Shown piece after piece: positions 328-64,000 of a stretch of DNA of 64,000 nucleotides; position 1 is the stretch's first letter; every line of letters begins with the position of its first letter. This DNA is from Yuukianura sp. NJ FZ-2021 (taxonomy: Eukaryota). A program made the translations under genes and the position numbers. The notes under the pieces were generated by a model, which was not told the origin of the DNA, searched no databases, and saw only the letters and a program-made list of their open reading frames with translations. Where the stretch lies: positions 434,001 to 498,000 of the forward strand of contig JAJCTO010000009.1 of the NCBI GenBank assembly GCA_046563655.1, read 5' to 3'.

Positions 328-338
328 AAGGAGGAAGG

Positions 339-743
339 TGTAGAGCCCCGGTTTTCCCCCATTAGGTTAGGGTCAGTTGCCCCTTGAGGTTAGGGTGTGG
401 CCCTAGATTAGTGTTAGGTTAGTGTAGTTAGGCTTTAGTGTAGTTTAGCCTGTAGTGAGATTTGGTTTGGCGTTTTAGCGCGAGTTTCGAGTAGAGTTGG
501 CGTGGTAGAGGAGAGAGAGGCTGGTTGTGCCAGTCAGTCGGTTTTTGGTGTTTGGTTCAGCATGAGCTGAGACTTTGTATCATTGTGTACAAATAAATAT
601 CTTTTATATTTATTTGTCTCTGTGTCTTTGTGTTGTTCCTTGGTGTCCCTTTTGGTCCTCAGTTTTGTTGCATGAGTCCGGCAGTGCTCGGATCGTAGTC
701 TGGAGGCCATCTTTGGCAGTTTGGCGTAGCACGAGGTGCTACA
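339..743 (+). repeat. 3' long terminal repeat (405 bp)
   Basis: TG...CA ends (TGTAG/CTACA), preceded by the PPT, with an internal poly(A) signal. The partner LTR is outside the window. Confidence 0.75.
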
Positions 744-2303: not shown

Positions 2304-2498
2304 GTTTGAGTTTGAGTTTATTATACTGCAAGTACCCTGCATGCAGGCCATTACACTTGAGTTTGACTTACGTTAAGAAAGGATGTATTACTTTAGTTAG
2401 TTGGTAGGTCAATGAAAACAAATATTGAAAAATATGAGGCAATTTAAAAAAGGGTTACATATCTAAAATTAAGATAAAAAGTTAAAATTAAAATTATT

Positions 2499-4406: not shown

Positions 4407-5358
4407 TTGAGTGCTGGCCCCTTAATAAAATCAGATTTTTGGTTTCTTGTGAAAGTGTAAGTGGCACAACTTTCGGTACAAATGAAACAATTTTGGTTTT
4501 TGCTGTGTCATCAAAGTTGGTTTTGAATTTCTGCATAAATTCGTGGAACTGGGAATTTAAATCCATATCACTGGTTTGGAATGTTGTGAACACATTCTTG
4601 AGGCCAAATTCCTCAAAGTCAAAATTTTTGTAGTCTCGATATGTAAACTGCACTCGTGGAATCTTTGGCTTCGTCAAGTTGAGTGTTAGAAGGGTCATCG
4701 CATGGTAAGAAATATGAGGATCGATGACACAATGATCAACTACTGTTGAATCAGAGCTGGTGAATATTAGGTCCAGTATGGACTCTCCCCTTGTTGGTTG
4801 TTCAACTAGTTGATGGAATATGGATGTTGTTTTTTTAACTAGATGACGACATTTAGGCGGAATGTACTTCTGGTTCAAGTCGAAGTCTCCAAAAACGAAG
4901 CTATTTTTTCTGCTGAGACTCAATTCATTAAAGAGTTTGTGTAATGAGTCTAAATCAGTGCTGATTATTTCAGAGGAGTAATTAGGAATACGGTAAACAC
5001 TGGAGACGAGAAAGCATTTGTTGTTGTTGAGTTGAATTGATAGGGTAATCACTTCAAAGTTACAGTTAAGAGGCACGTTGACAACTTTCACTTTTGACTT
5101 CAGGGTAGATCTAACAAGGATGCCTACACCTCCTTTTGCTTGCCATTCTCTGTCTAGGTGAAAGAATTCGAATCCTTCAATTGATCTTGGTGGGTTAGTG
5201 ATCTTCAGATGCGTTTCAGAGATACACAAGACGTCGAGATTGTAAGATTCAATCAGTATTTTTGTTAATTCACATTTAGAGTTGAATCCACAAACATTAA
5301 GTCCAGCAATTTTCAATTTTTTACAGGAAGTTGATGGAGCCGCGTCAAGATGATCTAG
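4348..5358 (-). pseudogene. LINE ORF2, apurinic-like endonuclease (APE) portion
   Basis: Motifs GLNV, LCISETHL, GGVGI, VYRIP, GDFD (usually GDFN), PTR...LDLIF, SYH (usually SDH). Frame is open right from the ORF1 stop with no ATG. Confidence 0.9.
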
Positions 5359-6108
5359 TCATTTCTGGTTTGGGTGAGAATTACTAACTCGAGGTTGAGG
5401 CAAAATTGTAGGATTTGACGTGCGTTTGAGTGCTCTGTTGATTCTTGTAGCTTTGGGTACGTCATCTCTAAGTACAAGTCTATCACCAGGTGGTGAGGTC
5501 GGCAAGTCAAATCGTTTTCCACAAACAGCGTTTCTTTCGTTTCTGGATCTGAAAACAATTTTTACGGGAGGAATTCGAGTGCCATTGAAGTTACCAAGAC
5601 GGGAGGCGGCAGAGACGAAGTTAGTGTTATTGAGTCCAGTCAATTCAGAGCAGAGATTTTCAATGTAATCGTTAAGTAGAGATTCGGTTTCATTCGTAAG
5701 TTTGTTCAGTCCATGCAGGATGAGGTTCGATTTACCAAGTTCAATCTGGATTTTTTCAATTTCCTTGTCATGTGTGGATAGTTTGGCAGTGTCCGCATCT
5801 TGTCTTGATTCAACAATAGAAACTCGGCTTTGAAGTGATGCGATTTGAGATGAGAGGTCGGTAATTTGCTGGGACAGTTTGTGATTGTCTTTTTGTAGAT
5901 CAATTCGAAGCTGATTAATGGCTGCCAGTACAGTTTCGTTGGCTATTTTCGGTTTCTTTGGGCCAAGGGAAGCAGAATTGTCGTCGACTGAAATATTGGC
6001 TTTTCGTGTTGAACTTCTTGTGTTTGGTTGATTTGTGTTCGGCAACTGAACAACGTTCGCAGTGTCTGGTGGAGTATTAATCGTGGAGTCACTGGTTAGG
6101 GAACTCAT
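5359..6108 (-). CDS. LINE ORF1 (low-complexity N-terminus, coiled coil, RRM-like region)
   Basis: Heptad coiled coil (INQLRIDLQKDNHKLSQQITDLSSQIASLQSRVSIVE) followed by SNLILHGL...RLG...PVKIVF, a typical ORF1 layout. First ATG at 6108. Confidence 0.8.
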   Translation of the reverse strand: MSSLTSDSTINTPPDTANVVQLPNTNQPNTRSSTRKANISVDDNSASLGPKKPKIANETVLAAINQLRIDLQKDNHKLSQQITDLSSQIASLQSRVSIVESRQDADTAKLSTHDKEIEKIQIELGKSNLILHGLNKLTNETESLLNDYIENLCSELTGLNNTNFVSAASRLGNFNGTRIPPVKIVFRSRNERNAVCGKRFDLPTSPPGDRLVLRDDVPKATRINRALKRTSNPTILPQPRVSNSHPNQK

Positions 6109-6279
6109 TGGGAGGATGTACAATGTCCGTCAGGCACCAAAAAATTACTTCCATTTCCGTTTGCTTGTTTGATGAGTTTCTTCCTGGATGTCCGCAAGAG
6201 CCTTTAGTCCACTGTTCGTTGATGTTGATCCGTGGAGGTCACGTATGTCAATGGAAGCACCAGTTATGTCCAAGTATTT

Positions 6280-6731
6280 TTTTTTTGGAGAGTTAATTGA
6301 CATTAGCATTTAGCTTTATCAACAGGGGTAGGGAATTTCTGGGTTGGGTTGAGGTCCTATGAGGTGGGGCGGTGGTACAGTCAGATAGTTGGCGAGAGGT
6401 TCTGAGGGAAGGACGAAAGGCTTTCTGCTAGAGCTGAACGGGCTAGGGCCCTACCACATATCACAGCTCCAGGCAAGTGACAGGAACAGCATCGTACGCA
6501 TACCGGCCCACGACCCCCCTCCACAACTGCAACTACTGACCTCTTCACACCCACCCATAACCCCCAAACTGACCTATCATCCGAACACCCCATCTGGGCT
6601 AGGAAAGTGGGAAAACCATTTCTGGAAAACGACTTTCGTGTCGGCGACGCCGGGACTCGAACCCGCGCCCGTCCAAGGTGTTAGTAGGATAGAGCCGGAG
6701 CTCTAGTCCCCCCGGCCTACGGGCCTTGGAC
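6280..6731 (-). mobile_element. tRNA-derived SINE (~450 bp) nested in the LINE 5' UTR
   Basis: 15-bp TSD TATGTCCAAGTATTT at 6265-6279 and 6732-6746. Poly(A) tail (T run 6277-6286). The minus-strand head has an A-box-like TAGGCCGGGGGG and the B box GGTTCGAGTCCC. Confidence 0.88.
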
Positions 6732-7184
6732 TATGTCCAAGTATTTCGTCCATCGTTTGTTCGGAAAGTAAAAGAACAAATACAAGCGATTAGAACCAGG
6801 TACCAACGATTAAGACAGAACGATCTGCACCTGGGTCAATCCCGTTCCGGTAGGGATACACCTCGACGTATGCGTTTGGTTTAGATGAAGGACGCAGAAT
6901 CCCAAGTCTCGTAACGTCAGATTAATGTGTTTCACAAAATATGATCACGAATGGCTCCGTCAGTCCAATTCAAATCAAAGCTTATCGATTAGTTATGATC
7001 AATCTCAAAATCAGCTGGAAAGATATCACCTTAGTCAATCCCACTCCGGCAGGGATACGACACTACGTAAGCAGTTGCTTTATTTGATGATCGATCCAGT
7101 GTAGTGGAGAATGAGTAGTGGAAGAAGGGATTGTAGATTGGGATTGCTTCAACTTGCTTCAAATTGACATTTCGGTTTTGGTGA

Positions 7185-8129
7185 CATTTGACAAATTCAT
7201 TGTCAAACGCGTCACATGGCATCATAACACAGTTTGTATGTTACACCAGCGACTGGACTTCAATTTGTGGAAAACCCACTTTTAGTGTTTTGCAGACGCA
7301 TGTATGCGACAGGCTGTGGAAGACTATTGATACAAATTTGTCGGTGTCGTGTTTTTTGGGCCTTTTGCACTGGAGTACTTAAGGCGGAACAGTCGAATAT
7401 GTTTCACATTGAGCTAGTTTCTAGCGCGGTCTCTGTCTTGCTAATCTAAGGTAAGTTTCAGCGTAAATAGGTTAGGGCACTGATTTTGAAACCTTAGTGC
7501 GGCTTAGTATATCAAGTTACAACGTATCTGAGTAGTCTGCTCTAACATTTCTCTTTGTATCAAATTTAAGTGGAGAGTTTCCCGGGAATTTCACAAATTC
7601 ATTGTCAAACGCGTCACATGGCCCATAACACAGTTTGTATGTTACACCAGCGACTGGACTTCAATGTGTAGAATACCCACTTTTAGTCTTTTGCAGACGC
7701 ATGTCTGCGAAAGGCTGTGGAAGGCTATTGATACAAATTTGTCGGTGTCGTATTTTTAGGGCCCTTTGCGGTGGAGTACTTAAGGCGGAACAGTCGAATA
7801 TATTTCACATAGAGCTGGCTTCTAGCGCGGTCTCTGTCTTGCTAATCTAACGTAAGTTTCAGCGTAAGTAGGTTACGGCACTGATTTTGAAACCTCAGTT
7901 CGGCTTAGTATATCAAGTTACAACGTATCTGAGTAGCCTGCTCTAACATTTCTCTTTGTATCAAATTTAAGTGGAAAGTTCCCCGGCCATTTGACAAATT
8001 TATTGTCAAACGCGTCACATGGCATCATAACACAATTTGTATGTTACACCAGCGACTGGACTTCAATTTGTGGAAAACCCACTTTTAGTGTTTTGCAGAC
8101 GCATGTCTGCGACAGGCTGTGGATACAAA
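7185..8129. repeat. 402-bp tandem satellite, block 2 (~2.3 copies)
   Basis: Same unit as 744-2303 (matching ORF starts at 7234, 7635, 8037), slightly more diverged. Confidence 0.96.
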
Positions 8130-11100
8130 TTGAATTATAAACGGGGTTATGAACTGCTCGGCACTCTTTTCTGTTATCGTCGAGGGAAGATTATCGTTAC
8201 AACGTATTTTAAAACAGAGAAATCCCCGCTGCTACAAGTGGCAGCTCTGGGTGACATGCAAACTTATAGTAGCCACCATAGCCTCCATGAGAAGGAGCAA
8301 ACAGATATTTTGAAAGCATTCTTGTACAAGAGAACGGTGTGATCAACAAAATGTTTATGTCTACTCATTTTCGAAAATTTGTTGAATTAGAAACGGGGTT
8401 ATGAACTGCTCGGCACTGTTTTCTGTTATCGTCAAAGGAAGATTATCGGTACAACGTATTTTACCACAGAGAAATCCCCGCTGCTACAAGTGGCAGCTCT
8501 GACTGACATGCAAACTTATAGTAGCCACCATAGCCTCCATGAGAAGGAGCAAACAGATATTTTGGAAGCAATCTTGTACTAGAGAACGGTTTGATCAACA
8601 AAATGTGTAATGTCTACTCATTTTCGAAAATTTGTTGAATTAGAAACGGGGTTATGAACTGCTCGGCACTATTTTCTGTTATCGTCAAAGGAAGATTATC
8701 GGTACAACGTATTTTACCACAGAGAAATCCCCGCTGCTACAAGTGGCAGCTCTGACTGACATACAAACTTATAGAAGCCACCATAGCCTCCATGAGACGG
8801 AGCAAACAGATATTTTGGAAGCAATCTTGTACTAGAGAACGGTGTGATCAACAAAATGTGTAATTTCTACTCATTTCCGAAAATTTGTTGAATTATAAAC
8901 AGCGCTATGAACTGCTCGGCACTCTTTCCTGTTATCGTCGATGGAAGATTATCGGTACAACGTATTTTACCACAGAGAAATCCCCGCTGCTACAAGTGGC
9001 ACCTCTGAATGACATGCAAACTTATAGTAGCCACCATAGCCTCCATGAGAAGGAGCAAACAGATATTTTGAAAGCATTCTTGTACAAGGGAACGGTGTGA
9101 TCAACAAAATGTGTAATTTCCACTTATTTTCGAAAATTTGTTGAATTATAAACGGGGTTATGAACTGCTCGGCACTATTTTTTGTTATCGTCAAAGGAAG
9201 ATTATCGGTACAACGTATTTTACCACAGAGAAATCCCCGCTGCTACAAGTGGCAGCTCTGACTGACATGCAAACTTATAGTAGCCACCATAGCATCCATG
9301 AGAAGGAGCAAACAGATATTTTGAAAGCATTCTTGTACAAGGGAACGGTGTGATCAACAAAATGTGTAATTTCCACTCATTCTCGAAAAGTTTTTGATTT
9401 ATAAACGGGGTTATGAACTGCTCGGCACTATCTTCTGTTATCGTCAAAGGAAGATTATCGGTACAACGTATTTTACCACAGAGAAATCCCCGCTGCTACA
9501 AGTGGCAGCTCTGACTGACATGCAAACTTATAGTAGCCACCATAGCCTCCATGAGAAGGAGCAAACAGATATTTTGGAAGCAATCTTGTACTAGAGAACG
9601 GTTTGATCAACAAAATGTGTAATGTCTACTCATTTTCGAAAATTTGTTGAATTAGAAACGGGGTTATGAACTGCTCGGCACTATTTTCTGTTATCGTCAA
9701 AGGAAGATTATCGGTACAACGTATTTTACCACAGAGAAATCCCCGCTGCTACAAGTGGCAGCTCTGACTGACATACAAACTTATAGAAGCCACCATAGCC
9801 TCCATGAGACGGAGCAAACAGATATTTTGGAAGCAATCTTGTACTAGAGAACGGTGTGATCAACAAAATGTGTAATTTCTACTCATTTTCGAAAATTTGT
9901 TGAATTATAAACGGGGTTATGAACTGCTCGGCACTCTTTCCTGTTATCGTCGAAGGAAGATTATCGGTACAACGTATTTTACCACAGAGAAATCCCCGCT
10001 GCTACAAGTGGCAGCTCTGACTGACACGCAAACTTATAGTAGCCACCATAGCCTCCATGAGAAGGAGCAAACAGATATTTTGAAAGCAATCTTGTACTAG
10101 AGAACGGTGTGATCAACAAAATGTGTAATTTCTACTCATTTCCGAAAATTTGTTGAATTATAAACAGCGCTATGAACTGCTCGGCACTCTTTCCTGTTAT
10201 CGTCGAGGGAAGATTATCGGTACAACGTATTTTACCACAGAGAAATCCCCGCTGCTACAAGTGGCAGCTCTGAGTGACATGCAAACTTATAGTAGCCACC
10301 ATAGCCTCCATGAGAAGGAGCAAACAGATATTTTGAAAGCATTCTTGTACAAGGGAACGGTGTGATCAACAAAATGTGTAATTTCCACTCATTTTCGAAA
10401 ATTTTTTGAATTATAAACGGGGTTATGAACTGCTCGGCACTATTTTCTGTTATCGTCAAAGGAAGATTATCGGTACAACGTATTTTACCACAGAGAAATC
10501 CCCGCTGCTACAAGTGGCAGCTCTGACTGACATACAAACTTATAGTAGCCACCATTGCCTCCATGAGAAGGAGCAAACAGATATTTTGCAAGCAACCTTG
10601 TACTAGAGAACGGTGTGATCAACAAAATGTGTAATTTCCACTCATTTTCGAAAATTTGTTGAATTATAAACAGGGTTATGAACTGCTCGGCACTCTTTCC
10701 TGTTATCGTCAAAGGAAGATTATCGGTACAACGTATTTTACCACAGAGAAATCCCCGCTGCTACAAGTGGCAGCTCTGACTGACATGCAAACTTATAGTA
10801 GCCACCATAGCCTCCATGAGAAGGAGCAAACAGATATTTTGAAAGCAATCTTGTACTAGAGAACGGTGTGATCAACAAAATGTGTAATTTCTACTCATTT
10901 TCGAAAATTTGTTGAATTATAAACGGGGTTATGAACTGCTCGGCACTCTTTTCTGTTATCGTCAAAGGAAGATTATCGGTACAACGTATTTTACCACAGA
11001 GAAATCCCCGCTGCTACAAGTGGCAGCTCTGACTGACATGCAAACTTATAGTAGCCACCATAGCCTCCATGAGAAGGAGCAAACAGATATTTTGAAAGCA

Positions 11101-14100
11101 TTCTTGTACAAGAGAACGGTGTGATCAACAAAATGTGTAATTTCTACTCATTTTCGAAAATTTGTTGAATTATAAACGGGGTTATGAACTGCTCGGCACT
11201 ATTTTCTGTTATCGTCAAAGGAAGATTATCGGTACAACGTATTTTACCACAGAGAAATCCCCGCTGCTACAAGTGGCAGCTCTGACTGACATACAAACTT
11301 ATAGTAGCCACCATTGCCTCCATGAGAAGGAGCAAACAGATATTTTGGAAGCAATCTTGTACTAGAGAACGGTTTGATCAACAAAATGTGTAATGTCTAC
11401 TCATTTTCGAAAATTTGTTGAATTAGAAACGGGGTTATGAACTGCTCGGCACTATTTTCTGTTATCGTCAAAGGAAGATTATCGGTACAACGTATTTTAC
11501 CACAGAGAAATCCCCGCTGCTACAAGTGGCAGCTCTGACTGACATGCAAACTTATAGTAGCCACCATAGCCTCCATGAGAAGGAGCAAACAGATATTTTG
11601 AAAGCAATCTTGTACTAGAGAACGGTGTGATCAACAAAATGTGTAATTTCTACTCATTTCCGAAAATTTGTTGAATTATAAACGGGGTTATGAACTGCTC
11701 GGCACTATTTTCTGTTATCGTCAAAGGAAGATTATCGGTACAACGTATTTTACCACAGAGAAATCCCCGCTGCTACAAGTGGCAGCTCTGACTGACATGC
11801 AAACTTATAGTAGCCACCATAGCCTCCATGAGAAGGAGCAAACAGATATTTTGAAAGCATTCTTGTACAAGAGAACGGTGTGATCAACAAAATGTGTAAT
11901 TTCTACTCATTTTCGAAAATTTGTTGAATTATAAACGGGGTTATGAACTGCTCGGCACTATTTTCTGTTATCGTCAAAGGAAGATTATCGGTACAACGTA
12001 TTTTACCACAGAGAAATCCCCGCTGCTACAAGTGGCAGCTCTGACTGACATACAAACTTATAGTAGCCACCATAGCCTCCATGAGAAGGAGCAAACAGAT
12101 ATTTTGAAAGCAATCTTGTACTAGAGAACGGTGTGATCAACAAAATGTGTAATTTCTACTCATTTTCGAAAATTTGTTGAATTAGAAACGGGGTTATGAA
12201 CTGCTCGGCACTCTTTCCTGTTATCGTCAAAGGAAGATTATCGGTACAACGTATTTTACCACAGAGAAATCCCCGCTGCTACAAGTGGCAGCTCTGACTG
12301 ACATGCAAACTTATAGTAGCCACCATACCCTCCATGAGAAGGAGCAAACAGATATTTTGAAAGCAATCTTGTACTAGAGAACGGTGTGATCAACAAAATG
12401 TGTAATTTCTACTCATTTTCGAAAATTTGTTGAATTAGAAACGGGGTTATGAACTGCTCGGCACTCTTTTCTGTTATCGTCGAGGGAAGATTATCGGTAC
12501 AACGTATTTTACCACAGAGAAATCCCCGCTGCTACAAGTGGCAGCTCTGACTGACATGCAAACTTATAGTAGCCACCATAGCCTCCATGAGAAGGAGCAA
12601 ACAGATATTTTGAAAGCATTCTTGTACAAGAGAACGGTGTGATCAACAAAATGTGTAATTTCCACTCATTTTCGAAAATTTGTTGAATTATAAACGGGGT
12701 TATGAACTGCTCGGCACTATTTTCTGTTATCGTCAAAGGAAGATTATCGGTACAACGTATTTTACCACAGAGAAATCCCCGCTGCTACAAGTGGCAGCTC
12801 TGACTGACATACAAACTTATAGTAGCCACCATAGCCTCCATGAGAAGGAGCAAACAGATATTTTGGAATCTTGTACTAGAGAACGGTGTGATCAACAAAA
12901 TGTGTAATTTCCACTCATTTTCGAAAATTTGTTGAATTATAAACGGGGTTATGAACTGCTCGGCACTATTTTCTGTTATCGTCAAAGGAAGATTATCGGT
13001 ACAACGTATTTTACCACAGAGAAATCCCCGCTGCTACAAGTGGCAGCTCTGACTGACATGCAAACTTATAGTAGCCACCATAGCCTCCATGAGAAGGAGC
13101 AAACAGATATTTTGAAAGCAATCTTGTACTAGAGAACGGTGTGATCAACAAAATGTGTAATCTTATAGTAGCCACCATAGCCTCCATGAGAAGGAGCAAA
13201 CAGATATTTTGAAAGCATTCCAAAATGTGTAATTTCCACTCATTTTCGAAAATTTGTTGAATTATAAACGGGGTTATGAACTGCTCGGCACTATTTTCTG
13301 TTATCGTCAAAGGAAGATTATCGGTACAACGTATTTTACCACAGAGAAATCCCCGCTGCTACAAGTGGCAGCTCTGACTGACATGCAAACTTATAGTAGC
13401 CACCATAGCCTCCATGAGAAGGAGCAAACAGATATTTTGAAAGCAATCTTGTACTAGAGAACGGTGTGATCAACAAAATGTGTAATGTCTACTCATTTTC
13501 GAAAATTTGTTGAATTAGAAACGGGGTTATGAACTGCTCGGCACTATTTTCTGTTATCGTCAAAGGAAGATTATCGGTACAACGTATTTTACCACAGAGA
13601 AATCCCCGCTGCTACAAGTGGCAGCTCTGACTGACATACAAACTTATAGTAGCCACCATAGCCTCCGTGAGAAGGAGCAAACAGATATTTTGAAAGCAAT
13701 CTTGTACTAGAGAACGGTGTGATCAACAAAATGTGTAATTTCTACTCATTTCCGAAAATTTGTTGAATTATAAACGGGGTTATGAACTGCTCGGCACTAT
13801 TTTCTGTTATCGTCAAAGGAAGATTATCGGTACAACGTATTTTACCACAGAGAAATCCCCGCTGCTACAAGTGGCAGCTCTGACTGACATGCAAACTTAT
13901 AGTAGCCACCATAGCCTCCATGAGAAGGAGCAAACAGATATTTTGAAAGCAATCTTGTACTAGAGAACGGTGTGATCAACAAAATGTGTAATGTCTACTC
14001 ATTTTCGAAAATTTGTTGAATTAGAAACGGGGTTATGAACTGCTCGGCACTCTTTTCTGTTATCGTCGAAGGAAGATTATCGGTACAACGTATTTTACCA

Positions 14101-53100: not shown

Positions 53101-55935
53101 GACATGCAAACTTATAGTAGGCACCATAGCCTCCGTGAGAAGGAGCAAACAGATATTTTGAAAGCAATCTGGTACTAGAGAACGGTGTGATCAACAAAAT
53201 GTGTAATTTCTACTCATTTCCGAAAATTTGTTGAATTATAAACAGCGCTATGAACTGCTCGGCACTCTTTCCTGTTATCGTCGATGGAAGATTATCGGTA
53301 CAACGTATTTTACCACAGAGAAATCCCCGCTGCTACAAGTGGCACCTCTGAATGACATGCAAACTTATAGTAGGCACCATAGCCTCCGTGAGAAGGAGCA
53401 AACAGATATTTTGAAAGCAATCTTGTACTAGAGAACGGTTTGATCAACAAAATGTGTAATGTCTACTCATTTTCGAAAATTTGTTGAATTAGAAACGGGG
53501 TTATGAACTGCTCGGCACTATTTTCTGTTATCGTCAAAGGAAGATTATCGGTACAACGTATTTTACCACAGAGAAATCCCCGCTGCTACAAGTGGCAGCT
53601 CTGACTGACATACAAACTTATAGAAGCCACCATAGCCTCCATGAGACGGAGCAAACAGATATTTTGGAAGCAATCTTGTACTAGAGAACGGTGTGATCAA
53701 CAAAATGTGTAATTTCTACTCATTTCCGAAAATTTGTTGAATTATAAACAGCGCTATGAACTGCTCGGCACTCTTTCCTGTTATCGTCGATGGAAGATTA
53801 TCGGTACAACGTATTTTACCACAGAGAAATCCCCGCTGCTACAAGTGGCAGCTCTGAATGACATGCAAACTTATAGTAGGCACCATAGCCTCCGTGAGAA
53901 GGAGCAAACAGATATTTTGAAAGCAATCTTGTACTAGAGAACGGTGTGATCAACAAAATGTGTAATGTCTACTCATTTTCGAAAATTTGTTGAATTAGAA
54001 ACGGGGTTATGAACTGCTCGGCACTATTTTCTGTTATCGTCAAAGGAAGATTATCGGTACAACGTATTTTACCACAGAGAAACCCCGCTGCTACAAGTGG
54101 CAGCTCTGACTGACATACAAACTTATAGAAGTCACCATAGCCTCCATGAGAAGGAGCAAACAGATATTTTGGAAGCAATCTTGTACTAGAGAACGGTTTG
54201 ATCAACAAAATGTGTAATGTCTACTCATTTTCGAAAATTTGTTGAATTAGAAACGGGGTTATGAACTGCTCGGCACTATTTTCTGTTATCGTCAAAGGAA
54301 GATTATCGGTACAACGTATTTTACCACAGAGAAACCCCGCTGCTACAAGTGGCAGCTCTGACTGACATACAAACTTATAGAAGTCACCATAGCCTCCATG
54401 AGAAGGAGCAAACAGATATTTTGGAAGCAATCTTGTACTAGAGAACGGTGTGATCAACAAAATGTGTAATTTCCACTCATTTTCGAAAATTTGTTGAATT
54501 ATAAACGGGGTTATGAACTGCTCGGCACTATTTTCTATTATCGTCAAAGGAAGATTATCGGTACAACGTATTTTACCACAGAGAAATCCCCGCTGCTACA
54601 AGTGGCAGCTCTGACTGACATGCAAACTTATAGTAGCCACCATAGCATCCATGAGAAGGAGCAAACAGATATTTTGGAAGCAATCTTGTACTAGAGAACG
54701 GTGTGATCAACAAAATGTGTAATTTCCACTCATTTTCGAAAATTTGTTGAATTATAAACGGGGTTATGAACTGCTCGGCACTATTTTCTATTATCGTCAA
54801 AGGAAGATTATCGGTACAACGTATTTTACCACAGAGAAATCCCCGCTGCTACAAGTGGCAGCTCTGACTGACATACAAACTTGTAGAAGCCACCATAGCC
54901 TCCATGAGAAGGAGCAAACAGATATTTTGGAAGCAATCTTGTACTAGAGAACGGTGTGATCAACAAAATGTGTAATTTCCACTCATTTTCGAAAATTTGT
55001 TGAATTATAAACGGGGTTATGAACTGCTCGGCACTATTTTCTATTATCGTCAAAGGAAGATTATCGGTACAACGTATTTTACCACAGAGAAATCCCCGCT
55101 GCTACAAGTGGCAGCTCTGACTGACATGCAAACTTATAGTAGCCACCATAGCCTCCGTGAGAAGGAGCAAACAGATATTTTGAAAGCAATCTTGTACTAG
55201 AGAACGGTGTGATCAACAAAATGTGTAATGTCTACTCATTTTCGAAAATTTGTTCAATTAGAAGCGTGGTTATGAACAGCTCGGCACTATTTTCTGTTAT
55301 CGTCGAAGGAAGATTATCGGTACAACGTATTTTACCGCAGAGAAATCCACGCTGCTACAAGTGGCAGCTCTGACTGACATACAAACTTATAGTAGCCACC
55401 ATTGCCTCCATGAGAAGGAGCAAACAGATATTTTGAAAGCATTCTTGTACAAGAGAACGGTCTGATCAACAAAATGTGTAATTTCCACTCATTTTCGAAA
55501 ATTTGTTGAATTATAAACGGGGTTATGAACTGCTCGGCACTATTTTCTATTATCGTCAAAGGAAGATTATCGGTACAACGTATTTTACCACAGAGAAATC
55601 CCCGCTGCTACAAGTGGCAGCTCTGACTGACATGCAAACTTATAGTAGCCACCATAGCCTCCATGAGAAGGAGCAAACAGATATTTTGAAAGCATTCTTG
55701 TACAAGAGAACGGTGTGATCAACAAAATGTGTAATTTCCACTCATTTTCGAAAATTTGTTGAATTATAAACGGGGTTATGAACTGCTCGGCACTATTTTC
55801 TGTTATCGTCAAAGGAAGATTAACGGTACAACGTATTTTACCACAGAGAAACCCCGCTGCTACAAGTGGCAGCTCTGACTGACATACAAACTTATAGAAG
55901 TCACCATAGCCTCCATGAGAAGGAGCAAACAGATA
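8130..55935. repeat. 253-bp tandem satellite array, ~189 head-to-tail copies (candidate centromeric/pericentromeric satellite)
   Basis: Period 253 throughout with a limited set of recurring substitutions. Starts at TGAATTATAAACGGGG and ends mid-monomer at ...GAGCAAACAGATA. Confidence 0.99.
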
Positions 55936-56215
55936 AGCTATAGTCATCTTGAAGGGAATTTCCACTTTTTCAAAATTGCACCCCCCCCCCTTTTTTTTTC
56001 ATCCCCCCCCCCCTCCCACACCCCTCACTGGGAAAAAAAAAACTAAAAAGTTAATAGTTTAATGAAATAATTAAAAGGTCACAAAAAGGAAAAAAGTGTT
56101 ACTATAGAAACACAAAAGTACTCCAAAGGAAATGTTTGTTTTTGAAAAAGAAAAAGAAAAAGACAAGGTCAAATTTTAGAAAAGGAGGCCATTCCGAGTT
56201 TGAACTTTGTTCAAG

Positions 56216-57004
56216 ATGGTCGCCTCAAGAATGGCTCCTCTCTTGTTCTGTTTCTTTTGTCTGCTCCACTTCGTTTCAAGCCGACCGTGGTGCCAATTGC
56301 TGAACAGCGCATGTTCAGATTGCGTTTCTGCTGGATGTTTCTTTGGAGTTCTGCTTGAGGATGGAAGAGCTGTTTGCTTCGCTGGAGGATTCCTGGGAGG
56401 TCTCCCACTTGCTTTTTCTGTGGGGCCAAGAACCAACTGTCCATCGCCAACTCCAGCGCCATCTACTACAACAACTTCAGATGGAAGAATTTCCTTGGAA
56501 CTAAAGCTTCTCTTGTCCATTGCGCATGAGCAAACTTCTACTTCGACACAATCAAGCACTTCAACTACTCCGAAGCTTCCAACCACTTCTGCGCATGACA
56601 ACTTTGGAACTTTTTTGCTTCTTTTTGGATTCTTAGGTAACTATTACAAGTTACAATTGCACAAATCAACGAAAAATTTGTACTCTAATTAGAATTTTGA
56701 TTTTATTTCAGTTTTCATGCTGATTCTGATTGCTGTTTGGATTCTACTACGCAAAAGGCGATGTCAAGTTCGGAGAGGTCAAAGGTCACTGGAGATTTTT
56801 TCATTGGAAAATCCAAACTATACTGGAATCGAATCACCCGAGCCATCTCTAGGCGAGCAGTCTCCGGAATCTAGCGTCAACACTTCTCCAGAAAACTCGC
56901 CAGTTGCTGTTCTTCCCAAAAGAGGGCGCTTTAGTGCAGATGGTGTCTACCGGACATTTTTTGGACGCAGGTCAATTCTGCCAACAAGATACAAGCCTTT
57001 CTAA
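56216..57004 (+). CDS. Type-I membrane glycoprotein: signal peptide, 6-Cys PSI-like domain, Ser/Thr mucin stalk, TM, cytoplasmic NPxY; exons 56216-56636, 56712-57004 (237 aa)
   Basis: GT-AG intron 56637-56711 joins the two ORFs in frame, giving one continuous TM helix (FLLLFGFLVFMLILIAVWILL) followed by RKRR. AATAAA follows at ~57073. Confidence 0.75.
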
Positions 57005-57136
57005 CACAATTCATTTCTAATTCTATTGTTACTCAGTTATTGTACTAATTTTTCTAAAAGTTATCATTTTGAAATAAAGTTTATTGTTGTTTATTTTTGA
57101 CAATCAGTTTGTTTTTAGCCTTTGTCGAGCGTAGAC

Positions 57137-58191
57137 ATGGAAACTAAGCAAAAATATACAAATTTGGAAAATGTAAAGAGTTTTTCAGGCCTTTCTACAT
57201 TTCTACGCGGAGAAGCAAATAAATCCAAAAAAACAAAAGAACTTCAAACGTTGCCAAGTTATAGTTTGTTCAAGCCAGTAAAATTAAAGTACATTGAGCG
57301 TCAAACTTTTGTTCCATTTCCATTCCACACGTTTGGCATGGACTTAATGTCTGTCCAGAACGTGTCACGGAAAAACAAGGGAATCAACTGGATTCTTATT
57401 ACAGTTGATCTCTTTTCACGTAAGCTCTACACTGCATTTTTAAAGAAAAAGAATGCAGTGTCTGTGGAGGAAGGAATCCGGAAGGTCTTTCAAGAATCTG
57501 GCCAACGTCCACACTTTGTCCTTGTAGACAGGGTATGTACCCCAGTCCCCCCCCCCCCAATTTAAATATTATTTATATACGTCAATTTCTTTGAAACAAT
57601 AGGGACGAGAGTTTTACAATAGGAAGGTTCAGACTCTCTTTCAGACATTGAATTTCAAAATGTATTCGGTGCACTCCATGAACAAATGCAGCATATGCGA
57701 ACGTGTACAGTTGACCTTGAGAACCAAACTCGCTCGTGTCCAAAACCAGACTGAGACCCCGGGCAAGTTTCTGGACGTGTGGGATCAGCTAGTTAAAAAT
57801 TACAACAATACTTATCATTCGAGCATCAAGATGGCGCCCAATGACGTCACCGTCGAAAACAGTGACGTAGTTTTTCGTAACCTTTATGGCAAAACTATTG
57901 AAACTCAAAAGCGTATAAAACCACGATACAAGGTCGGTGACCAGGTCAGAATATCCACTGCAAGGGTCACGTTCACAAAGGCTTCTACTGTTGAAAAGTG
58001 GTCACGTGAGATTTTTCGTATCATTGCCGTTCACAAGTCCAACGTGGCTTACTATTTCTTGGAGGATCTTCAAGGAGAACCCATAATTGGTAAGTTGCCC
58101 CCACCCCCACCGCATGTCAAATGTTTAAAACAATAACTTTGTTGATTTTCCAGGAACATTTGTGCAAGAGGAGCTCAACAAAGTATCTTAG
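57137..58191 (+). CDS. Maverick retroviral-like DDE integrase; exons 57137-57532, 57603-58089, 58154-58191 (306 aa)
   Basis: Motifs FGMDL...TVDLFSRK, D-R-G-R-E-F-Y-N (restored by intron 57533-57602), ICERVQLT, YNNTYHSSIKMAP, YKVGDQVRIS, WSREIF and GEPIIGTFVQEELNKV (restored by intron 58090-58153). Confidence 0.92.
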
Positions 58192-58193
58192 CC

Positions 58194-59264
58194 ATGTCAG
58201 TCTACTTTGCCCCCGTGTCTAGGTATATTATATTAGACAGTTCTCTAAACAGTGCCCAATTTCCCGAAAACAAGCCAAATGACTTCAGAGGAAAGTTGAT
58301 GCCTATTGTTGACGGTGCAAAGGAGCCCTTGGAAGTTGCCATTGACAGTATGACTTATACTCCTGGGCCCAAGCCAGAACGCAACATTTTTGGACATAAT
58401 GTGGGCGATAATGTTATCAACGTTACTGAACACTTGGAATCTACTGCAACTTTTAGAAAAATAGATGGGATAATAAAGTTTTTTGGCCATGTCAACAAGG
58501 AATTGAAAAAACTTCAGAAACAAATTACAATTACATACTCAAACCGAGTCTTTTCTCTGTCAAATGAAGAAAAGGGGCACACAGTAGCCATGACAGAAGT
58601 CTATGCTCTCGCCTTTGGATTTGACACAAATACGTTTCCTAACGGAGTTACTCATGGTCATGAGTATACCGAACGCATTTTTAATGAGATTGATCCGACG
58701 ATAAACATGGTACTAAGTATTTTTCAAGACAAGGAAAACTTGGCAACAGTGGCAGAACCAAAGCAGAAAACTGTCGACGGGCTTGTTGAAGTCTTAAACG
58801 CCGCCTTGACCCCATTTCAAATTACATTCAAGTACTCTGAAAAAGAATCCTTGTTGACTTATACGCGTGAATCTACGCACAATTACATTACACGCCTCTC
58901 CCCCTTATTGGGCCAAATATTTGGACTTCCCCCTGGAACTGCATTTCATGATCACACCCAAACACAACCAGCAAAAGCAGAGATTGACCTTGGGGTCACG
59001 TCACAGCATATGCTTGTTACTTGCGATCTCGCCTCCTATTCCCAAGTTGGCCAGCTTTCACTTCCCTTGATTGGATTGTTTAAGCAAGAGGGAAAGGAGG
59101 GAACTCCTGTCCATCTGGTTATCAACAACCCCCGCTACTTTCCAGTAAAAAGGGAGCAACTGATTGATTCTACCCGCATTCAGCTTTTGGACGAGTACCA
59201 GGCACCTCTCTCTGAAGGTCACGGGCCAACCCTACTCGCTCTCCATGTCCGAAGCAACCCCTAG
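58194..59264 (+). CDS. Putative minor capsid (penton-like) protein, 356 aa
   Basis: N-terminal ILDSSLNSAQFPENKPNDF and C-terminal YFPV...IDSTRIQLLDEY...TLLALHVR resemble Polinton minor capsid termini. Position after the integrase fits. Confidence 0.75.
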   Translation: MSVYFAPVSRYIILDSSLNSAQFPENKPNDFRGKLMPIVDGAKEPLEVAIDSMTYTPGPKPERNIFGHNVGDNVINVTEHLESTATFRKIDGIIKFFGHVNKELKKLQKQITITYSNRVFSLSNEEKGHTVAMTEVYALAFGFDTNTFPNGVTHGHEYTERIFNEIDPTINMVLSIFQDKENLATVAEPKQKTVDGLVEVLNAALTPFQITFKYSEKESLLTYTRESTHNYITRLSPLLGQIFGLPPGTAFHDHTQTQPAKAEIDLGVTSQHMLVTCDLASYSQVGQLSLPLIGLFKQEGKEGTPVHLVINNPRYFPVKREQLIDSTRIQLLDEYQAPLSEGHGPTLLALHVRSNP

Positions 59265-59924
59265 GTATTACGACATTGACCCCTCCCGACCACGTCTTCC
59301 CGAGTTGTTTATCGAGGACTACGTTGGAGATGTTCCTCCAAGGGCGGAACATAAAGTTTTGTGTAAGTTTCCAATCTACGTTTCCGAACAAGCACGCTTG
59401 GACACCTTTTACGCACACGGTTACGAGTGGCCCCTTAAATTCATTTCCCCGCTGGATGCTGCCAAGGGTGGTTTTTACTGCTTAAAACGGGGTGATCGTG
59501 TCTGCTGCGTCTACTGCAATTTACACCTTTTTGATTTTATGGAAGGAGATTCAATTGAAGAAGAGCACTCGAGATCCAAAAACACTTGCCCATTCCTAAG
59601 AGGAGTTCCAAATATAAACATTCCAATTCAGTGCAACAGCCAGAACGAGGTTCGAGAAAAGGTAGAGGATTTTATCAGTTTTGCAAAAAAAAGAGCCGCT
59701 TTCGCCGCCAGCCGTTTGACGCCAAGTGCACAGAAAAGCTGGATTCAATACTGAAGCATCTCAGCGCCGACCGCACCTGTAAAGTTTGTGCCAATAGTGA
59801 AGTTGACACGATTTTTCTCACTTGCTGCCACTATGTGACTTGCTACTATTGTTCTGAAAAATGTGAAAAGTGTCCCTTGTGCCGTGCTACCATAATGGGA
59901 CGCATCCGAACCTTTACTGCATAA
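59245..59924 (+). CDS. iap: Inhibitor-of-apoptosis protein (one BIR + C-terminal RING), split over two frames
   Basis: BIR: ARLDTF...WP...AKGGFY...DRVCCVYC...EEH...CPFL (59245-59754). RING: CKVC...FLTCCHYVTC..C...CPLCR in the -1 frame, ending 59924. Confidence 0.85.
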
Positions 59925-60028
59925 GAGAAGCGGATGACCCCGGTGACTTTAGTCTGTGTTTAGTTCTCTTCGTGGACACACGTATGCGACAAGTTCTCTG
60001 TGACAAAATATCGTGCAAGTTGAAACCC

Positions 60029-60337
60029 ATGGATACTTCTGAAGAGCAGGTCCAGGCAGGTGGCGGACTAGGTCAGACGCCAGTACCGTTTTACCTTCCG
60101 CTGCAGCGTGTTGTGTCTTCTAGTGCTCGTGGTAGAAAGGGAAAGGTCAAGAGTAAACGTAAAGGAAGTGCAAGTGGTGTGAAGCGAAAGAAACGTACAT
60201 TTCAAAAAGGGAGCGGGAAAGTTAAAAGAGTGTCTCAAGAAGGAAAAGGAAAAAGGCGCAAACCCAAGAAATCCAAGCCAGTCAAAAGAAAGCGTTCGAC
60301 CAAGTCAGTCGCATCTAGTAGTTGCTCCAGGCAGTGA
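60029..60337 (+). CDS. Small Lys/Arg-rich protein with QxGxG motifs (putative DNA-condensing core protein, 102 aa)
   Basis: QAGGG, QKGSG and QEGKG motifs plus a highly basic tract. Lies directly upstream of the major capsid with a TGATG stop/start overlap. Confidence 0.65.
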   Translation: MDTSEEQVQAGGGLGQTPVPFYLPLQRVVSSSARGRKGKVKSKRKGSASGVKRKKRTFQKGSGKVKRVSQEGKGKRRKPKKSKPVKRKRSTKSVASSSCSRQ

Positions 60338-61701
60338 TGGAAATTTTAGGAAAAAGCCGCAAAACCTACCAAAGTTCGCTGGATCCCTTTCTAATTTGGG
60401 ATCAGGATGTCAGTCTTCAAGAAACACGTTACTTGCAAGTCACTCCGCTTTCGTCACTCGCTGACGAAGGACCTATTGTTTTTAGAATTCCCAAGTCAAA
60501 ACTCTATTATCACTTGGGTGATTCATATTTGTATATAAAGTCAAAAGTTGTAAATGCTGATGGAACCACTTTGGCATCTACCGACAACGTAGCTCCTTCA
60601 AATTTGTTCTTCTACAGTCTCTTTTCAAACTGTTCAGTGGACATTAATGGAACACGTGTAAATGACAGTGCCGGAAAGTATCATTACAGGGGAGTGTTGC
60701 CTTTAATACTCGGTGTAGGAGAAGCCAACAAGTCCACGCGTATGTCTGAACAGTTTTGGTATCCAGATACCAAGGTCGATAGTTTCACCGACGCGACCAA
60801 TGAGGCATTCAAACTCCGCAAGTCATTTTCGGCTGGTTCCAAGGCATTTGAGGTCATGGGCCGCCCAGCCTCTTCAATTTTTGAGACTGGCAGGGTTCTA
60901 CTGCCTGACAATGAACTTGAGGTCACATTTACGAGAAACTCGAGCAGCATTTACTTGGATTCAGATACAACAACCAAGACTGGGCAGACTGGAATTCCAT
61001 GGAAGGCATCAATTCTCGAGTGTATTTTGTTTGTAAAAACATACCAAATTAACCCAGAAATCCGTAACCGTCACGAGCAGGCTCTTCAGCGTGGGTTAAA
61101 AGCCGTCTATCCGCTAAATGAACTAGAGATTCGCCCAATTTCGATTCCAGTTGGTCAGATCAAGTTTAACACTACAGTCAACTACTCAAACAGAATTCCC
61201 AATTTCATAGCTGTGGCTCTTTTGGATGCCGAGGCCTACAATGGAAAACTGACAAAGAGTTTTCAAAATTTTGGAAGCAATGGACTTGTGTCTATAACTG
61301 TTACGTTCTCCGAGAGTTCGTTTGTCTACCAAAGACTAGATTTTGACTTTGAAGGTGGCAACTATCTCCGAGCGTATAATGCCCTGTTTAATGCTTTGCC
61401 TCCAGGAAGTACTTCTAGCAACGGTATAAGTCGAAGTGACTATACTAATGGCAATACAATTTTTATTTTTGAAATAAATGACGCCCCGAGTAGCCAGGCC
61501 TTTCTACCACAGCTTGTTGGCGACTTGAAGGTTAGAATTTAAAAAAAAATACCAATAAAACCAAAGTCACGTTTTGTTTTTTTCATTTAGTTGGATCTTG
61601 AGTTTAAGACTGCAACCACGAAAATTATACAGCTACTCGTTTTTGGGAAACAAACCAACATTTTAACAATTGACAAGAACCGAACCGTCAAGCTCAGCTA
61701 G
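60337..61701 (+). CDS. Maverick major capsid protein (double jelly-roll type); exons 60337-61530, 61591-61701 (434 aa)
   Basis: Motifs PIVFRIP...YLYIKSKVV...NLFFYSLFSNCSVDING...YHYR...LLPDNELEVTFTRN...YNG...F. Intron 61531-61590 restores the C-terminus GDLKLDLEF...LLVFG...ILTIDKNRTV. Confidence 0.88.
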
Positions 61702-61702
61702 G

Positions 61703-62236
61703 ATGGACACGGAACAAGTAGAATACGCTCTTCGCGGAATAGCGTCATGCGCTAGCCCATGGATCCAGTCTTTTGTTGTTGCCAACGATGAAATTTGTCA
61801 ATTAAATTTACGCGCCCCATTTGCAGTTATCCAAAATGTAGACTTTTCGTCACAAAATGGAACGCACTGGGTCTTGTGGATCACTCTCGGTAAACGTCTC
61901 ATCTTTTTTGATTCGTTCGCCTGCACTCCCCAACACTACAACCTAAATTACCCAACCAAGTTTCGACGAATTTCCCAAGTGAATTCAGTGCCACTTCAGT
62001 CTGAATCCAGCTCCAAGTGCGCCGAGTTTTGTTTATATGTAGCTTATTGTATTTTTAGAGGACAGACGTTTGATTGCGTTCTGAATACGTTTAACACTAC
62101 AGATTTAAAGTTTAACGATTTAATGGTTAGTTTGTTTTTGAAAAATTTTTTACTAAATTTATCTCAAAAAAAGTGTTTTATTGATAGGAAAAGTAAATGT
62201 ATTCAGAATTCAAAACCAAAACTTGAGTGGAAATAA
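61703..62236 (+). CDS. Adenain-family cysteine (maturation) protease, 177 aa
   Basis: NVD...GTHWV, FFDSF and LQSESSSKCAEFC give the catalytic H-D-(Q)-C in order. AATAAA overlaps the stop. Confidence 0.92.
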   Translation: MDTEQVEYALRGIASCASPWIQSFVVANDEICQLNLRAPFAVIQNVDFSSQNGTHWVLWITLGKRLIFFDSFACTPQHYNLNYPTKFRRISQVNSVPLQSESSSKCAEFCLYVAYCIFRGQTFDCVLNTFNTTDLKFNDLMVSLFLKNFLLNLSQKKCFIDRKSKCIQNSKPKLEWK

Positions 62237-62402
62237 AAATCTACCCTCGCTAACATAACCTCAACTCTGTGTTCTAGTACCTTTATTGCCCTTTCGTGAG
62301 GGTAAAGTTGAACTTCGACGGGAGTTGCATTTTTTGTAGTCATTTGCATTTTGGTCTGCAGAGGGAGAGGTCGATCACATTTTGTAGTGCAATAGAGTAA
62401 TA

Positions 62403-62705
62403 ATGGAGAACATTTTGTCTGAAAAGAACAAGGAAATTGAGACGTGGAAATTTATTGTCCGGTGCAATGAGGGAAGCATCTCCTACCTCAAAGACACAGT
62501 ATACGAACTACGCTTGGATTTGGAAGAAGCTAAACTTCGAAACGAGGCACTCAAACAGGAACTGGAGGCGGTACGATCTCTGCTAAAGGATCACAAACCC
62601 AGCTCTTTGGAGAAGCTCTTTGAGAACTTGAGCATTAGGCCTCTTTCTCCGCCTCCACTCCCTCCCATGCTCCCGACTCAACTCTTTTCCAGAAACAACA
62701 ACTAA
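62403..62705 (+). CDS. Hypothetical coiled-coil protein (100 aa)
   Basis: ATG-initiated ORF with a leucine heptad and a Pro-rich tail; no recognised family. Confidence 0.45.
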   Translation: MENILSEKNKEIETWKFIVRCNEGSISYLKDTVYELRLDLEEAKLRNEALKQELEAVRSLLKDHKPSSLEKLFENLSIRPLSPPPLPPMLPTQLFSRNNN

Positions 62706-62894
62706 ATTTACAACGAGTTAAAATTTTCAACAAGTGAAAGTGACCTTAGATTACAATAATTAATAGATGAGGCTCACGACTTTGTTTTACTCTTTTCTAG
62801 AAACAACAACTAAATTTTCAACAAGTTAAAGTTTTCAACAAGTGAAAGTGACCTTAGATTACAATAACCAACAGACGAGGCTCACGACTTTGTT
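62681..62894. repeat. Two-copy 108-bp tandem duplication between convergent genes
   Basis: ACTCTTTTC(C/T)AGAAACAACAACTAAATTT...GAGGCTCACGACTTTGTT begins at 62681 and again at 62789. Confidence 0.9.
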
Positions 62895-62953
62895 GTAAGA
62901 CAGGTTTTATTTACAGAATTTTGAAAAATAATAAAAAACGCACTTTCACTCAA

Positions 62954-63968
62954 TTATTGAAGCTCTTCAATTGGTGGACACTCTTGTAGAATCTCCTCAA
63001 AAACTGCAATCATGGCTCGAAGCTCCGCCTTGCTGAGTTGAATCTTGGGTCCTGCATAAAACATTTGACGTTTGAAATATTTCATAGTTTATTTGAGATT
63101 ATGTTACCATGGTAGTCGGCGTATTCTTGACTTGCTCCTGGAGAATTAATGTAAAAGCTGTAGAATCCTCCATTGGCATGAAACATTGGGCGAAGACGAA
63201 ATGTTGCGCTTTCAGTCATGAAAATGGATGCATCGTTCCAAAACTCTGCTTTCGTAGGTTTCAAATCCTGTGGCGGAAACACTGGAACTCCAGTTCGAAT
63301 TCCTTCTTCAATTTTAGGGAGAAGCTCCTCTTTCACAAAGTTAATTACTGCCTCAACTTCGCTAATCAGAATTTGCACAATTGACGGCTTTGTCCCAACA
63401 TTATCCTTCCGGAGAAATACTTTGAGAACCTTGAAAATAATAAACGGTTAGAATTTGGAACAAACATTTCTTGATAAATTAAAAAATAGTACATCGTTGT
63501 AGCTATCCAGTCCGAGGCGAATCAAAATCTTGCTAGACAGAGCAATCTTTTTTGTTATTGGATCTGCAAAAAATGCTTCCTTATTGTACGCACTGTACGG
63601 CACGCAGCGAATCCTTTCCATGAATGCAAAATGGTTTGAAGAGTTGGGGCCACGAAAGGTCATGGGAAGCTTTTCATAACCTTGCTCTTCTCCCTGTCCC
63701 CCGGTAATGAGTTCCCTTGCACGCTTCATCCCTGGTACGTTTTGCTGCGGTAACTGCGAAATCAATTCACCGACACTTCGGGTCATGTCACCTTCACCAA
63801 CCAAAACACAACTGGCCTTTACTTGCACCAGTTTGACCCTTTTATAGTAGATGGATGGGTCATAAAAGGTATACACACTGCCAAATTCTCGCCAGTGTGT
63901 GTCTAACCTTTGGTCAGTGAGGATGTCAAAAAGAGATGCGAGTGGAAAGTGTCTAGTGACGTTGGAGT
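62954..63968 (-). CDS. Spliced hypothetical protein, C-terminal half possibly tandem PC4-like ssDNA-binding repeats; exons 63968-63493, 63429-63108, 63051-62954; 5' partial
   Basis: GT-AG introns 63492-63430 and 63107-63052 join three segments in frame, ending GPKIQLSKAELRAMIAVFEEILQECPPIEELQ*. The PC4 resemblance is only a by-eye pattern. Confidence 0.6.
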
Positions 63969-64000
63969 CTTATCATACATTTATAGATGAACAAAAACAA

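Follow-up and report, generated by a model that had tools for sequence, protein, structure and literature searches.

Introduction

In vertebrate Mavericks the genes fall into two modules, ppolb-atp-pm-pz and int/minor capsid/PW/major capsid/pro, which are encoded on opposite strands and run towards the middle of the element; accessory regions stand outside these modules, intact copies are intronless, and the terminal inverted repeats (TIRs) measure 46-1447 bp, according to the available part of PMC8097293. Here we analyse a stretch of 64,000 nucleotides (nt) of contig JAJCTO010000009.1 (assembly GCA_046563655.1) from Yuukianura sp. NJ FZ-2021, positions 434,001 to 498,000 of the forward strand, referred to below as the window and used for all coordinates. 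Positions 55936-64000 of the window very probably represent the arm encoding the integrase and virion proteins of an endogenous Maverick/Polinton (adintovirus-like) double-stranded DNA virus that lies beside a satellite in an animal genome. Set against the vertebrate elements as that source portrays them, this arm has the same int-to-pro module on one strand facing a convergent module, but its integrase gene has two introns, its capsid gene one and its protease gene possibly one, and an inhibitor of apoptosis (IAP) gene is inserted after the minor capsid gene, ahead of the open reading frame (ORF) in the PW position.

Adintoviruses, to the extent covered by the accessible portions of PMC8502044 and 10.1101/2024.03.25.586562, share with this element an animal association, an adenovirus-like hexon, an adenain, an rve integrase, an IAP accessory gene and, probably, a penton. 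The definition of adintoviruses in the latter source includes a PolB with an OTU-like N-terminus and a hexon recognisable by BLASTp, and a chromodomain at the integrase C-terminus is named as typical of the group; the integrase described here has no C-terminal chromodomain. Homologues of Bcl2 and IAP have been observed in adintoviruses (Starrett et al. 2021, PMC8502044), and eight leafhopper adintovirus genomes are listed with an IAP ORF (10.64898/2026.07.28.741253), again in those parts of the two reports that are available. A literature search on Maverick/Polinton or adintovirus in combination with IAP, apoptosis or BIR domain returned nothing more specific than PMC8502044 and the leafhopper preprint. 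In nematodes, Mavericks carry intron-bearing, probably host-derived cargo between their left end and the integrase gene (Widen et al., 10.1101/2022.07.12.499685, available part). A membrane protein gene is carried by these nematode elements and may also belong to the one described here, although the nematode protein MFUS-1 is an 866-amino-acid (aa) gB-like class III fusogen, as described there, whereas the present gene encodes a 237-aa mucin-like type-I protein, and no fold or family relation between the two could be detected.

Results

A probable Maverick arm next to a satellite array

The arm was identified as part of a Maverick because the fold of the capsid protein, the catalytic triad of the integrase, the homologues of the protease and the order of the genes all agree. 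Integrase, penton, IAP, a small basic protein, capsid and protease are encoded in one tightly packed plus-strand module in which neighbouring genes either overlap at their stop and start codons or are separated by 1-2 nt (Table 1), and this module faces a convergent minus-strand gene that runs past the window end. Base composition shifts at 55936 and from there to the end of the window the GC content is 0.39-0.44 and ORFs are dense. A preliminary description of this DNA had proposed that a Maverick/Polinton module for morphogenesis and integration, with an IAP inside it, adjoins a large satellite, and on both counts our analysis agrees with it: the identification was right, and Tandem Repeats Finder (TRF) traces an array of a 253-bp repeat up to 55935. 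Similarity to the satellite stops at that position, directly abutting the viral element, and no similarity to the satellite was found in the interior of the element; the array is thus context that lies outside the virus.

The capsid protein gave no match in Pfam, in a word-indexed protein search, in phage records or in IMG/VR. When 1.84 billion representative proteins were searched with HMMER, 4055 relatives were obtained at E<=1e-3, the best of them with 35% identity and an E-value of 6e-70. An alignment of 81 sequences, in which the relatives were 80 chosen from the 150 listed, was used for AlphaFold2 modelling and yielded a model with a pLDDT of 92.7, as against 29 from the single sequence. 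Foldseek searches of the PDB with this model returned the capsid proteins of Singapore grouper iridovirus (8e-10), mavirus (7e-9) and Sputnik (2e-8), and also that of PBCV-1, while in BFVD the best match came from Cotesia sesamiae Mombasa bracovirus (an uncharacterised protein, 5e-22), with a MELD virus protein and adomavirus LO7 among the further matches. We are confident in predicting from the model that the capsid protein has a double-jelly-roll fold. The bracovirus region encoding the matched Cotesia sesamiae protein is one that we take to contain a Maverick. As exon 2 of the capsid gene matches the uninterrupted C-terminus of a homologue from a related locus, L019, the capsid intron is real and lineage-specific. 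Protein P0012, used as bait in metagenome and viral contigs, gave no match, and alignments A1, A2 and A4 were too variable for pattern scans.

For the integrase, the Pfam rve model matched exon 1 weakly, below the cut-off (E 0.0029), and of 135 candidates, 12 matched exon 2 at E<=1e-3, with identities of 32-41%. All 12 of these homologues carry PF00665 and two carry a Chromo domain. In an alignment with the homologues (A3), the D,D,E triad falls on near-invariant columns, and the end of exon 1 (..VDR) abuts the start of exon 2 (GREF..) at the point where homologues read D-x-G-R/K-E-F. The closest integrase homologue, with 41% identity, is P0154, a 465-aa protein from a 3.5-Mb ENA contig in which the integrase is fused to DUF5679 and to a parvovirus-type phospholipase A2-like domain. 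This fusion is reminiscent of the PLA2X genes that have been described in adintoviruses.

Integrase alignments were also used to gather 82 related loci, 2 from IMG/VR and 80 from metagenome and whole-genome shotgun data. Searching these loci with the window proteins by tblastn gave matches for integrase exon 2 in all 82 loci, for the protease in 9, for the capsid protein in 5 and for the RING domain in 1, and none for the penton-like ORF, the BIR domain, the basic ORF, the coiled-coil ORF, the membrane protein or the minus-strand gene; a comparison of the window proteins with 165 fetched proteins found nothing above chance. Among the loci, L002 is a genuine Polinton-type genome: it encodes DNA_pol_B_2 (2.7e-42), rve and an A32 ATPase, together with a 146-aa ORF that scores with Peptidase_C5. 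The packaging ATPase is present in L001 and L002 and, weakly, in L044.

The protease had no direct match in Pfam or the PDB. By BLASTP it is related to the 146-aa ORF of L002 (2e-8), which itself matches Peptidase_C5 at E 2.7e-4, and to an ORF of L044 (1e-9) that matches the same family at E 1.9e-6. Its catalytic H, D, Q and C are invariant with the L002 homologue (alignment A5) and all lie within 61703-62125; unspliced, the gene would run on to 62236 (177 aa). A profile built from the two sequences of A5 matched Chlamydia Dub1 (0.02) and adenain 1avp (0.06) weakly in the PDB, and no match was found between the protease and P0076, a long protein of the capsid family. Homologues of the protease lie beside homologues of the integrase in 9 of the 82 related loci. 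The uninterrupted frames that had been described for integrase, penton-like ORF, capsid and protease were recovered as open gene models with canonical GT..AG introns, and the catalytic residues of integrase and protease are present on conserved columns, as had also been stated.

The penton-like ORF has no sequence match in Pfam or the PDB. In L044, L036 and L019 the ORFs adjacent to the integrase gene are related to one another, and a profile of these three aligned with residues 266-354 of the penton-like ORF using hhalign (probability 68%, E 4.9e-5), while the N-terminus of the ORF showed a weak BLASTP match to the L044 ORF (E 0.09). The order of integrase, penton-like ORF and capsid is shared by L018, L019, L036 and L044, and in L018 and L044 the protease is included as well. 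Between the integrase and capsid genes of L019 (10600-12328), a 353-aa penton-like ORF is followed in tandem by another of 209 aa, in which the N-terminal motif recurs; the arrangement agrees with the duplicate pentons that the available part of 10.1101/2024.03.25.586562 mentions for adintoviruses.

Several observations weigh against reading the locus as a Maverick arm. The support for the 356-aa ORF as the penton, from hhalign and synteny, is moderate, and the assignment is probable but not proven. Neither pPolB nor an FtsK/A32-type packaging ATPase was found by Pfam in 55936-64000, no inverted repeats were found within 55700-64000 or between that segment and positions 1-8400, and no TIR or 6-bp target-site duplication was seen in the window, in which only one end of the element can fall. 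The integrase ends 11 residues past its SH3-like domain and has no chromodomain; a Chromo domain is present in P0159, P0160 and L001 and is likewise absent from P0156. The membrane protein has no relatives in Pfam (E<=10), in Atlas or, by tblastn, in the 82 related loci, where the membrane gene was not found beside the integrase. One read contig is unbroken across 55982-58818, which argues against a long terminal repeat in that interval with an exact duplicate elsewhere, although this argument is weak because the contigs are not strict unitigs, and the junction of satellite and element is bridged by none of the listed contigs. Lastly, the minus-strand gene is unmatched in Pfam, PHROGs, the PDB, a search of 5.8 billion proteins and the 82 loci, with chance-level matches alone in Atlas, and for this reason the right arm is inferred rather than shown. 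We nonetheless favour the Maverick arm. The window holds the second Maverick module and the 3' part of a convergent gene, and the right arm is accordingly expected beyond 64000; the minus-strand gene stands where the replication/packaging module would end with 'PZ', and that module should, from the published architecture, hold pPolB and the packaging ATPase. The idea that the minus-strand gene is the part of pPolB following a DTDS motif, prompted by a motif resemblance alone, was dropped.

Table 1. Coordinates of the features in and beside the element, in window positions.
Feature	Position	Strand	Size	Remarks
253-bp satellite array	8130-55935	none	47.8 kb	TRF: 19.9 + 168.8 copies, 96-97% matches
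Leftmost part of element	55936-56215	+	280 nt	Low-complexity C/T/A runs upstream of membrane gene
Type-I membrane protein gene	56216-56636 + 56712-57004	+	237 aa	Open spliced frame, 75-nt GT..AG intron
rve integrase	57137-57532 + 57603-58089 + 58154-58191	+	306 aa	Three exons, frames open
Penton-like (minor capsid) ORF	58194-59264	+	356 aa	Starts 2 nt after integrase stop
IAP, BIR frame	59245-59754	+	169 aa	Start overlaps penton stop; stop codon 59752-59754
IAP, RING frame	59559-59924 (open)	+		No ATG of its own before RING
Lys/Arg-rich basic ORF	59984-60337	+	117 aa	Open frame, stop overlaps capsid ATG
Major capsid protein, predicted double jelly roll	60337-61530 + 61591-61701	+	434 aa	Two exons
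Adenain/Ulp1-type (clan CE) cysteine protease	61703-62125, possibly + 62188-62196	+	143 aa	Possible second exon of 9 nt
Coiled-coil/Pro-rich ORF	62403-62705	+	100 aa	Open frame; last gene of plus-strand module
108-bp tandem repeat	62681-62896	none		Two copies, 92% alike; zone where convergent units end
Minus-strand gene, 3' part	63968-63493, 63429-63108, 63051-62954	-	299 aa	Three exons; 5' part beyond window

Introns in the core genes

Exons were joined computationally for the sole purpose of counting stop codons. The introns are 56-75 nt long, of the GT..AG type and AT-rich, with a GC content of 0.18-0.42 in seven introns versus 0.435 in the exons. Those of the core genes, two in the integrase gene and one in the capsid gene, are 60-70 nt long and precise, their ends being exact relative to the homologue alignments; the minus-strand gene has introns of 63 and 56 nt, also GT..AG, and an open spliced frame. 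Introner insertions have been reported in Maverick-like proviruses of dinoflagellates in the accessible part of PMC11957031. That the introns here are copies of one such mobile 'introner' was rejected, as the intron sequences are not alike.

The IAP domains lie in two reading frames

Between the penton-like ORF and the capsid gene, a BIR domain (Pfam E 3.6e-13) is followed by a RING domain (zf-C3HC4_3, E 1.7e-11). A phmmer search of the PDB matched the BIR to NAIP (1e-12), the cIAP1 BIR (2e-11), DIAP1 (1e-9) and also XIAP. As read in the sequence, the BIR ligands CX2CX16HX6C are kept, and so are the zinc ligands of the RING. The same BIR ligands and a C-terminal C3HC4 RING are found in the IAPs of baculoviruses and entomopoxviruses and in the cellular IAPs cIAP1, DIAP1 and XIAP; the gene described here differs from these in having a single BIR, in having its domains in different frames and in being carried by a Maverick rather than by a large DNA virus. 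The BIR and RING of this copy occupy different reading frames, so that the gene as written encodes a BIR-only product. Thus, a BIR-RING IAP had been correctly placed inside the structural cluster, with both domains between penton and capsid, but the two do not share one frame.

The two frames overlap around a run of eight A residues at 59685-59692, and a second copy of the locus, seen in read run X3 (below), differs in the length of the same run, as would be expected of a plain homopolymer indel. The likeliest cause of the frame change is a break at the homopolymer that is confined to this copy. Alternatively, the IAP could be unbroken, the frame change being bridged by an atypical short intron or by ribosomal or transcriptional slippage on the 8-A run to give both BIR-only and BIR-RING isoforms. 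For an intron, there are GT..AG candidates of 62-65 nt in the linker that match the size of the element's other introns and give open BIR-RING models, but their GC content is exon-like (0.39-0.48 versus 0.18-0.42), their signals are weak and they are open in two frames, which the others are not. For slippage, the run is the sole 8-A run inside the element's coding regions and sits in the overlap of two open frames, and non-standard translation of adintovirus late genes has been raised in the available part of 10.1101/2024.03.25.586562; the 98 nt downstream of the run, however, fold worse than shuffled sequences (z +1.89), and therefore no stimulatory RNA structure is present there. The RING domain is undecayed, which favours an unbroken gene of either kind, as does the state of the L044 locus described next. 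Overall we consider an unbroken IAP unlikely and prefer the homopolymer frame break.

The related locus L044 (JFJP01038084.1) resembles the window in its integrase (30-35% identity), penton-like ORF, capsid protein of the same family (profile E 5e-98) and Peptidase_C5 protease. It also contains BIR (2.4e-12) and RING (1.6e-11) domains in two different frames at 10071-11151, with a possible 55-nt GTAAGA..TAG intron. In contrast to the window, this IAP lies ~1.3 kb downstream of the protease and not inside the structural module, and the BIR of the window has no tblastn match in it at 1e-3 while the RING is 40% identical over 55 aa. The L044 IAP may be either cargo or a host gene next to the element. 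ORFs with eIF-5 and eIF-2B domains follow the L044 BIR/RING, and no TIR was found in a search of this locus.

Sibling copies in the read data

Contigs were examined from three sequencing runs of one sample (X1, X2 and X3), none of which is RNA. Contigs of X1 and X2 identical to the window cover 55982-58818 (depth 49), 59280-62753 (depth 73) and 62854 onward (depth 63), and run 4,999 nt beyond the window end. Other contigs are diverged: those covering parts of the integrase gene are ~84% identical to it, with 29 and 21 differences in all, and 17 of the 26 integrase differences listed are synonymous (9/15 in exon 1 and 8/11 in exon 2), which fits divergence under selection. A contig at 58789-59309 has 6 differences (99% identity), 2 of 5 in the penton-like ORF being synonymous, and a depth of 186. 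This penton-end contig, at ~3-4x the depth of its neighbours, stops at 59280-59309, where contigs of all three runs start or end, 35-64 nt into the IAP coding region. Because contigs break there, the assembly graph branches at this point, and siblings may carry something else after the penton.

Run X3 contains a version of the element that is ~1-1.5% diverged from 58789 rightward. It shows length differences at 58919, at the A run and at 61269 (1 nt, inside the capsid gene), and one of its contigs skips 60250-60360. The depth of X3 is zero on the satellite, 1.8-3.1 over 56004-57005, 5.7 and 4.5 in two of the four bins of 57006-58341 and 23.5 and 44 in the other two, with values of 14-44 from 58342 rightward; we tentatively attribute the bins at 23.5 and 44 to pieces of diverged siblings. 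There is thus evidence of a family recently under selection, with several diverged copies in the same organism.

These data bear on whether the locus is a complete, recently active, infectious Maverick in which the IAP and a surface glycoprotein form a working host-manipulation kit, as had been suggested. The four uninterrupted core genes with their catalytic residues, the mostly synonymous differences of the sibling integrases, a second copy or allele close by in sequence (~1-1.5% diverged), the undecayed BIR and RING domains and the extension of contigs 5 kb past the window at similar depth are all in its favour. Set against this, the right arm and the TIRs are unseen, the RING frame differs from that of the BIR and has no start of its own, the capsid-gene length difference and the skipped segment in X3 indicate that at least some siblings are damaged, and it is unproven that the membrane gene belongs to the element. 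We therefore regard this possibility as distinctly improbable. The earlier wording 'apparently intact' is not upheld, since with one arm in the window, and with no pPolB, ATPase or inverted repeat in it, an integrase lacking a chromodomain and an IAP in two frames, intactness cannot be judged. Of the proposal of a recently active lineage, the synonymous sibling differences and the little-diverged copy bear out a family recently under selection, whereas an infectious cycle found no support. Nor does the two-gene kit of IAP and glycoprotein stand, given IAP domains in different frames and a membrane gene without relatives.

The membrane gene at the satellite border

The first gene after the satellite encodes a protein in which we recognise, by eye, a signal peptide, six Cys, a Cys-rich stretch, Ser/Thr/Pro-rich stretches, one transmembrane segment that bridges the exon junction and, in its tail, the sequences NPNY and YRTF. 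Located between the outer end of the element and the integrase gene, it stands in the cargo slot known from nematode and vertebrate Mavericks, although such a position is no proof of membership, and it is most simply explained as a host-derived accessory gene. A receptor-like membrane gene had been described as the first gene of the element; it is indeed the first after the satellite, but position alone ties it to the element. A crude hydropathy scan upstream of the integrase in 26 loci was too noisy for use.

It may instead be that the membrane gene stands outside the virus, the element being truncated or ending near 57005-57136 and a host gene or remnant lying between satellite and provirus. 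The gene has its own AATAAA (57074-57079) ahead of the integrase ATG, the 130-nt gap to the integrase gene is loose compared with the 1-2 nt inside the core module, the protein has neither a family nor a homologue in the 82 loci, and nothing further links the gene to the element. On the other hand, it is on the same strand, has the same type of short AT-rich intron and is immediately adjacent to the element; moreover, in X3 the membrane-gene bins and two of the four integrase bins (5.7 and 4.5) are alike in lying below the depth reached from 58342 rightward, and this shared low depth is consistent with one unit, although the data are thin. A gene outside the virus thus seems to us somewhat doubtful, and we retain the reading of an accessory gene of the element. 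The low-complexity segment between the satellite and this gene is a possible terminus or promoter.

Other features of the window

The basic ORF has no family match in Pfam; in the 'PW' position, it is a putative core or DNA-condensing protein. The coiled-coil ORF has sub-threshold coiled-coil matches in Pfam. AATAAA signals occur on both strands near the 108-bp tandem repeat, at which the read contigs break. At the far side of the satellite, blocks of a 402-bp tandem repeat (744-2303 and 7186-8123) flank long minus-strand ORFs of 256, 336 and 640 aa at 2499-6129, which by eye include an endonuclease-like part and a reverse transcriptase with an FADD motif. Judged in this way, the region 744-8123 looks like a retrotransposon of the long interspersed element (LINE) type inserted into a second satellite.

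Discussion

On the Maverick reading, the IAP of this locus is a BIR-RING gene that the virus captured and placed in its late operon, and in a productive cycle it would, judging from the IAP family, block the caspase-dependent death of the infected cell. The lineage has probably resided in nuclei long enough to gain precise spliceosomal introns in its core genes. A bolder picture can be drawn, in which a still-infectious invertebrate adintovirus-like lineage goes beyond the described Mavericks in three respects: its core virion genes are spliced; the RING of its late-operon IAP is gated at the 8-A tract, where slippage or variation in length would switch between BIR-only and BIR-RING forms; and its mucin-like type-I membrane protein in the cargo slot has a surface or immune-evasion role of the adenovirus E3 type. 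We hold this to be very improbable.

Accessory genes outside the core Maverick set had been put forward as a distinguishing mark of the element. An IAP is present, but genes of this sort are no novelty: for such elements, both IAP homologues and host cargo have already been published, as seen in the available parts of the reports cited above, and for that reason the locus raises no new question. Its practical value lies in clean gene models for annotating relatives that Pfam misses, namely the capsid protein, the penton, the ~143-aa protease and the basic ORF in the PW position. Taken together, our analysis presents the locus as a well-preserved animal Maverick in which an anti-apoptosis gene and spliceosomal introns have entered the structural module, and this supports the view that Mavericks are DNA viruses of the nucleus which exchange genes with their hosts.

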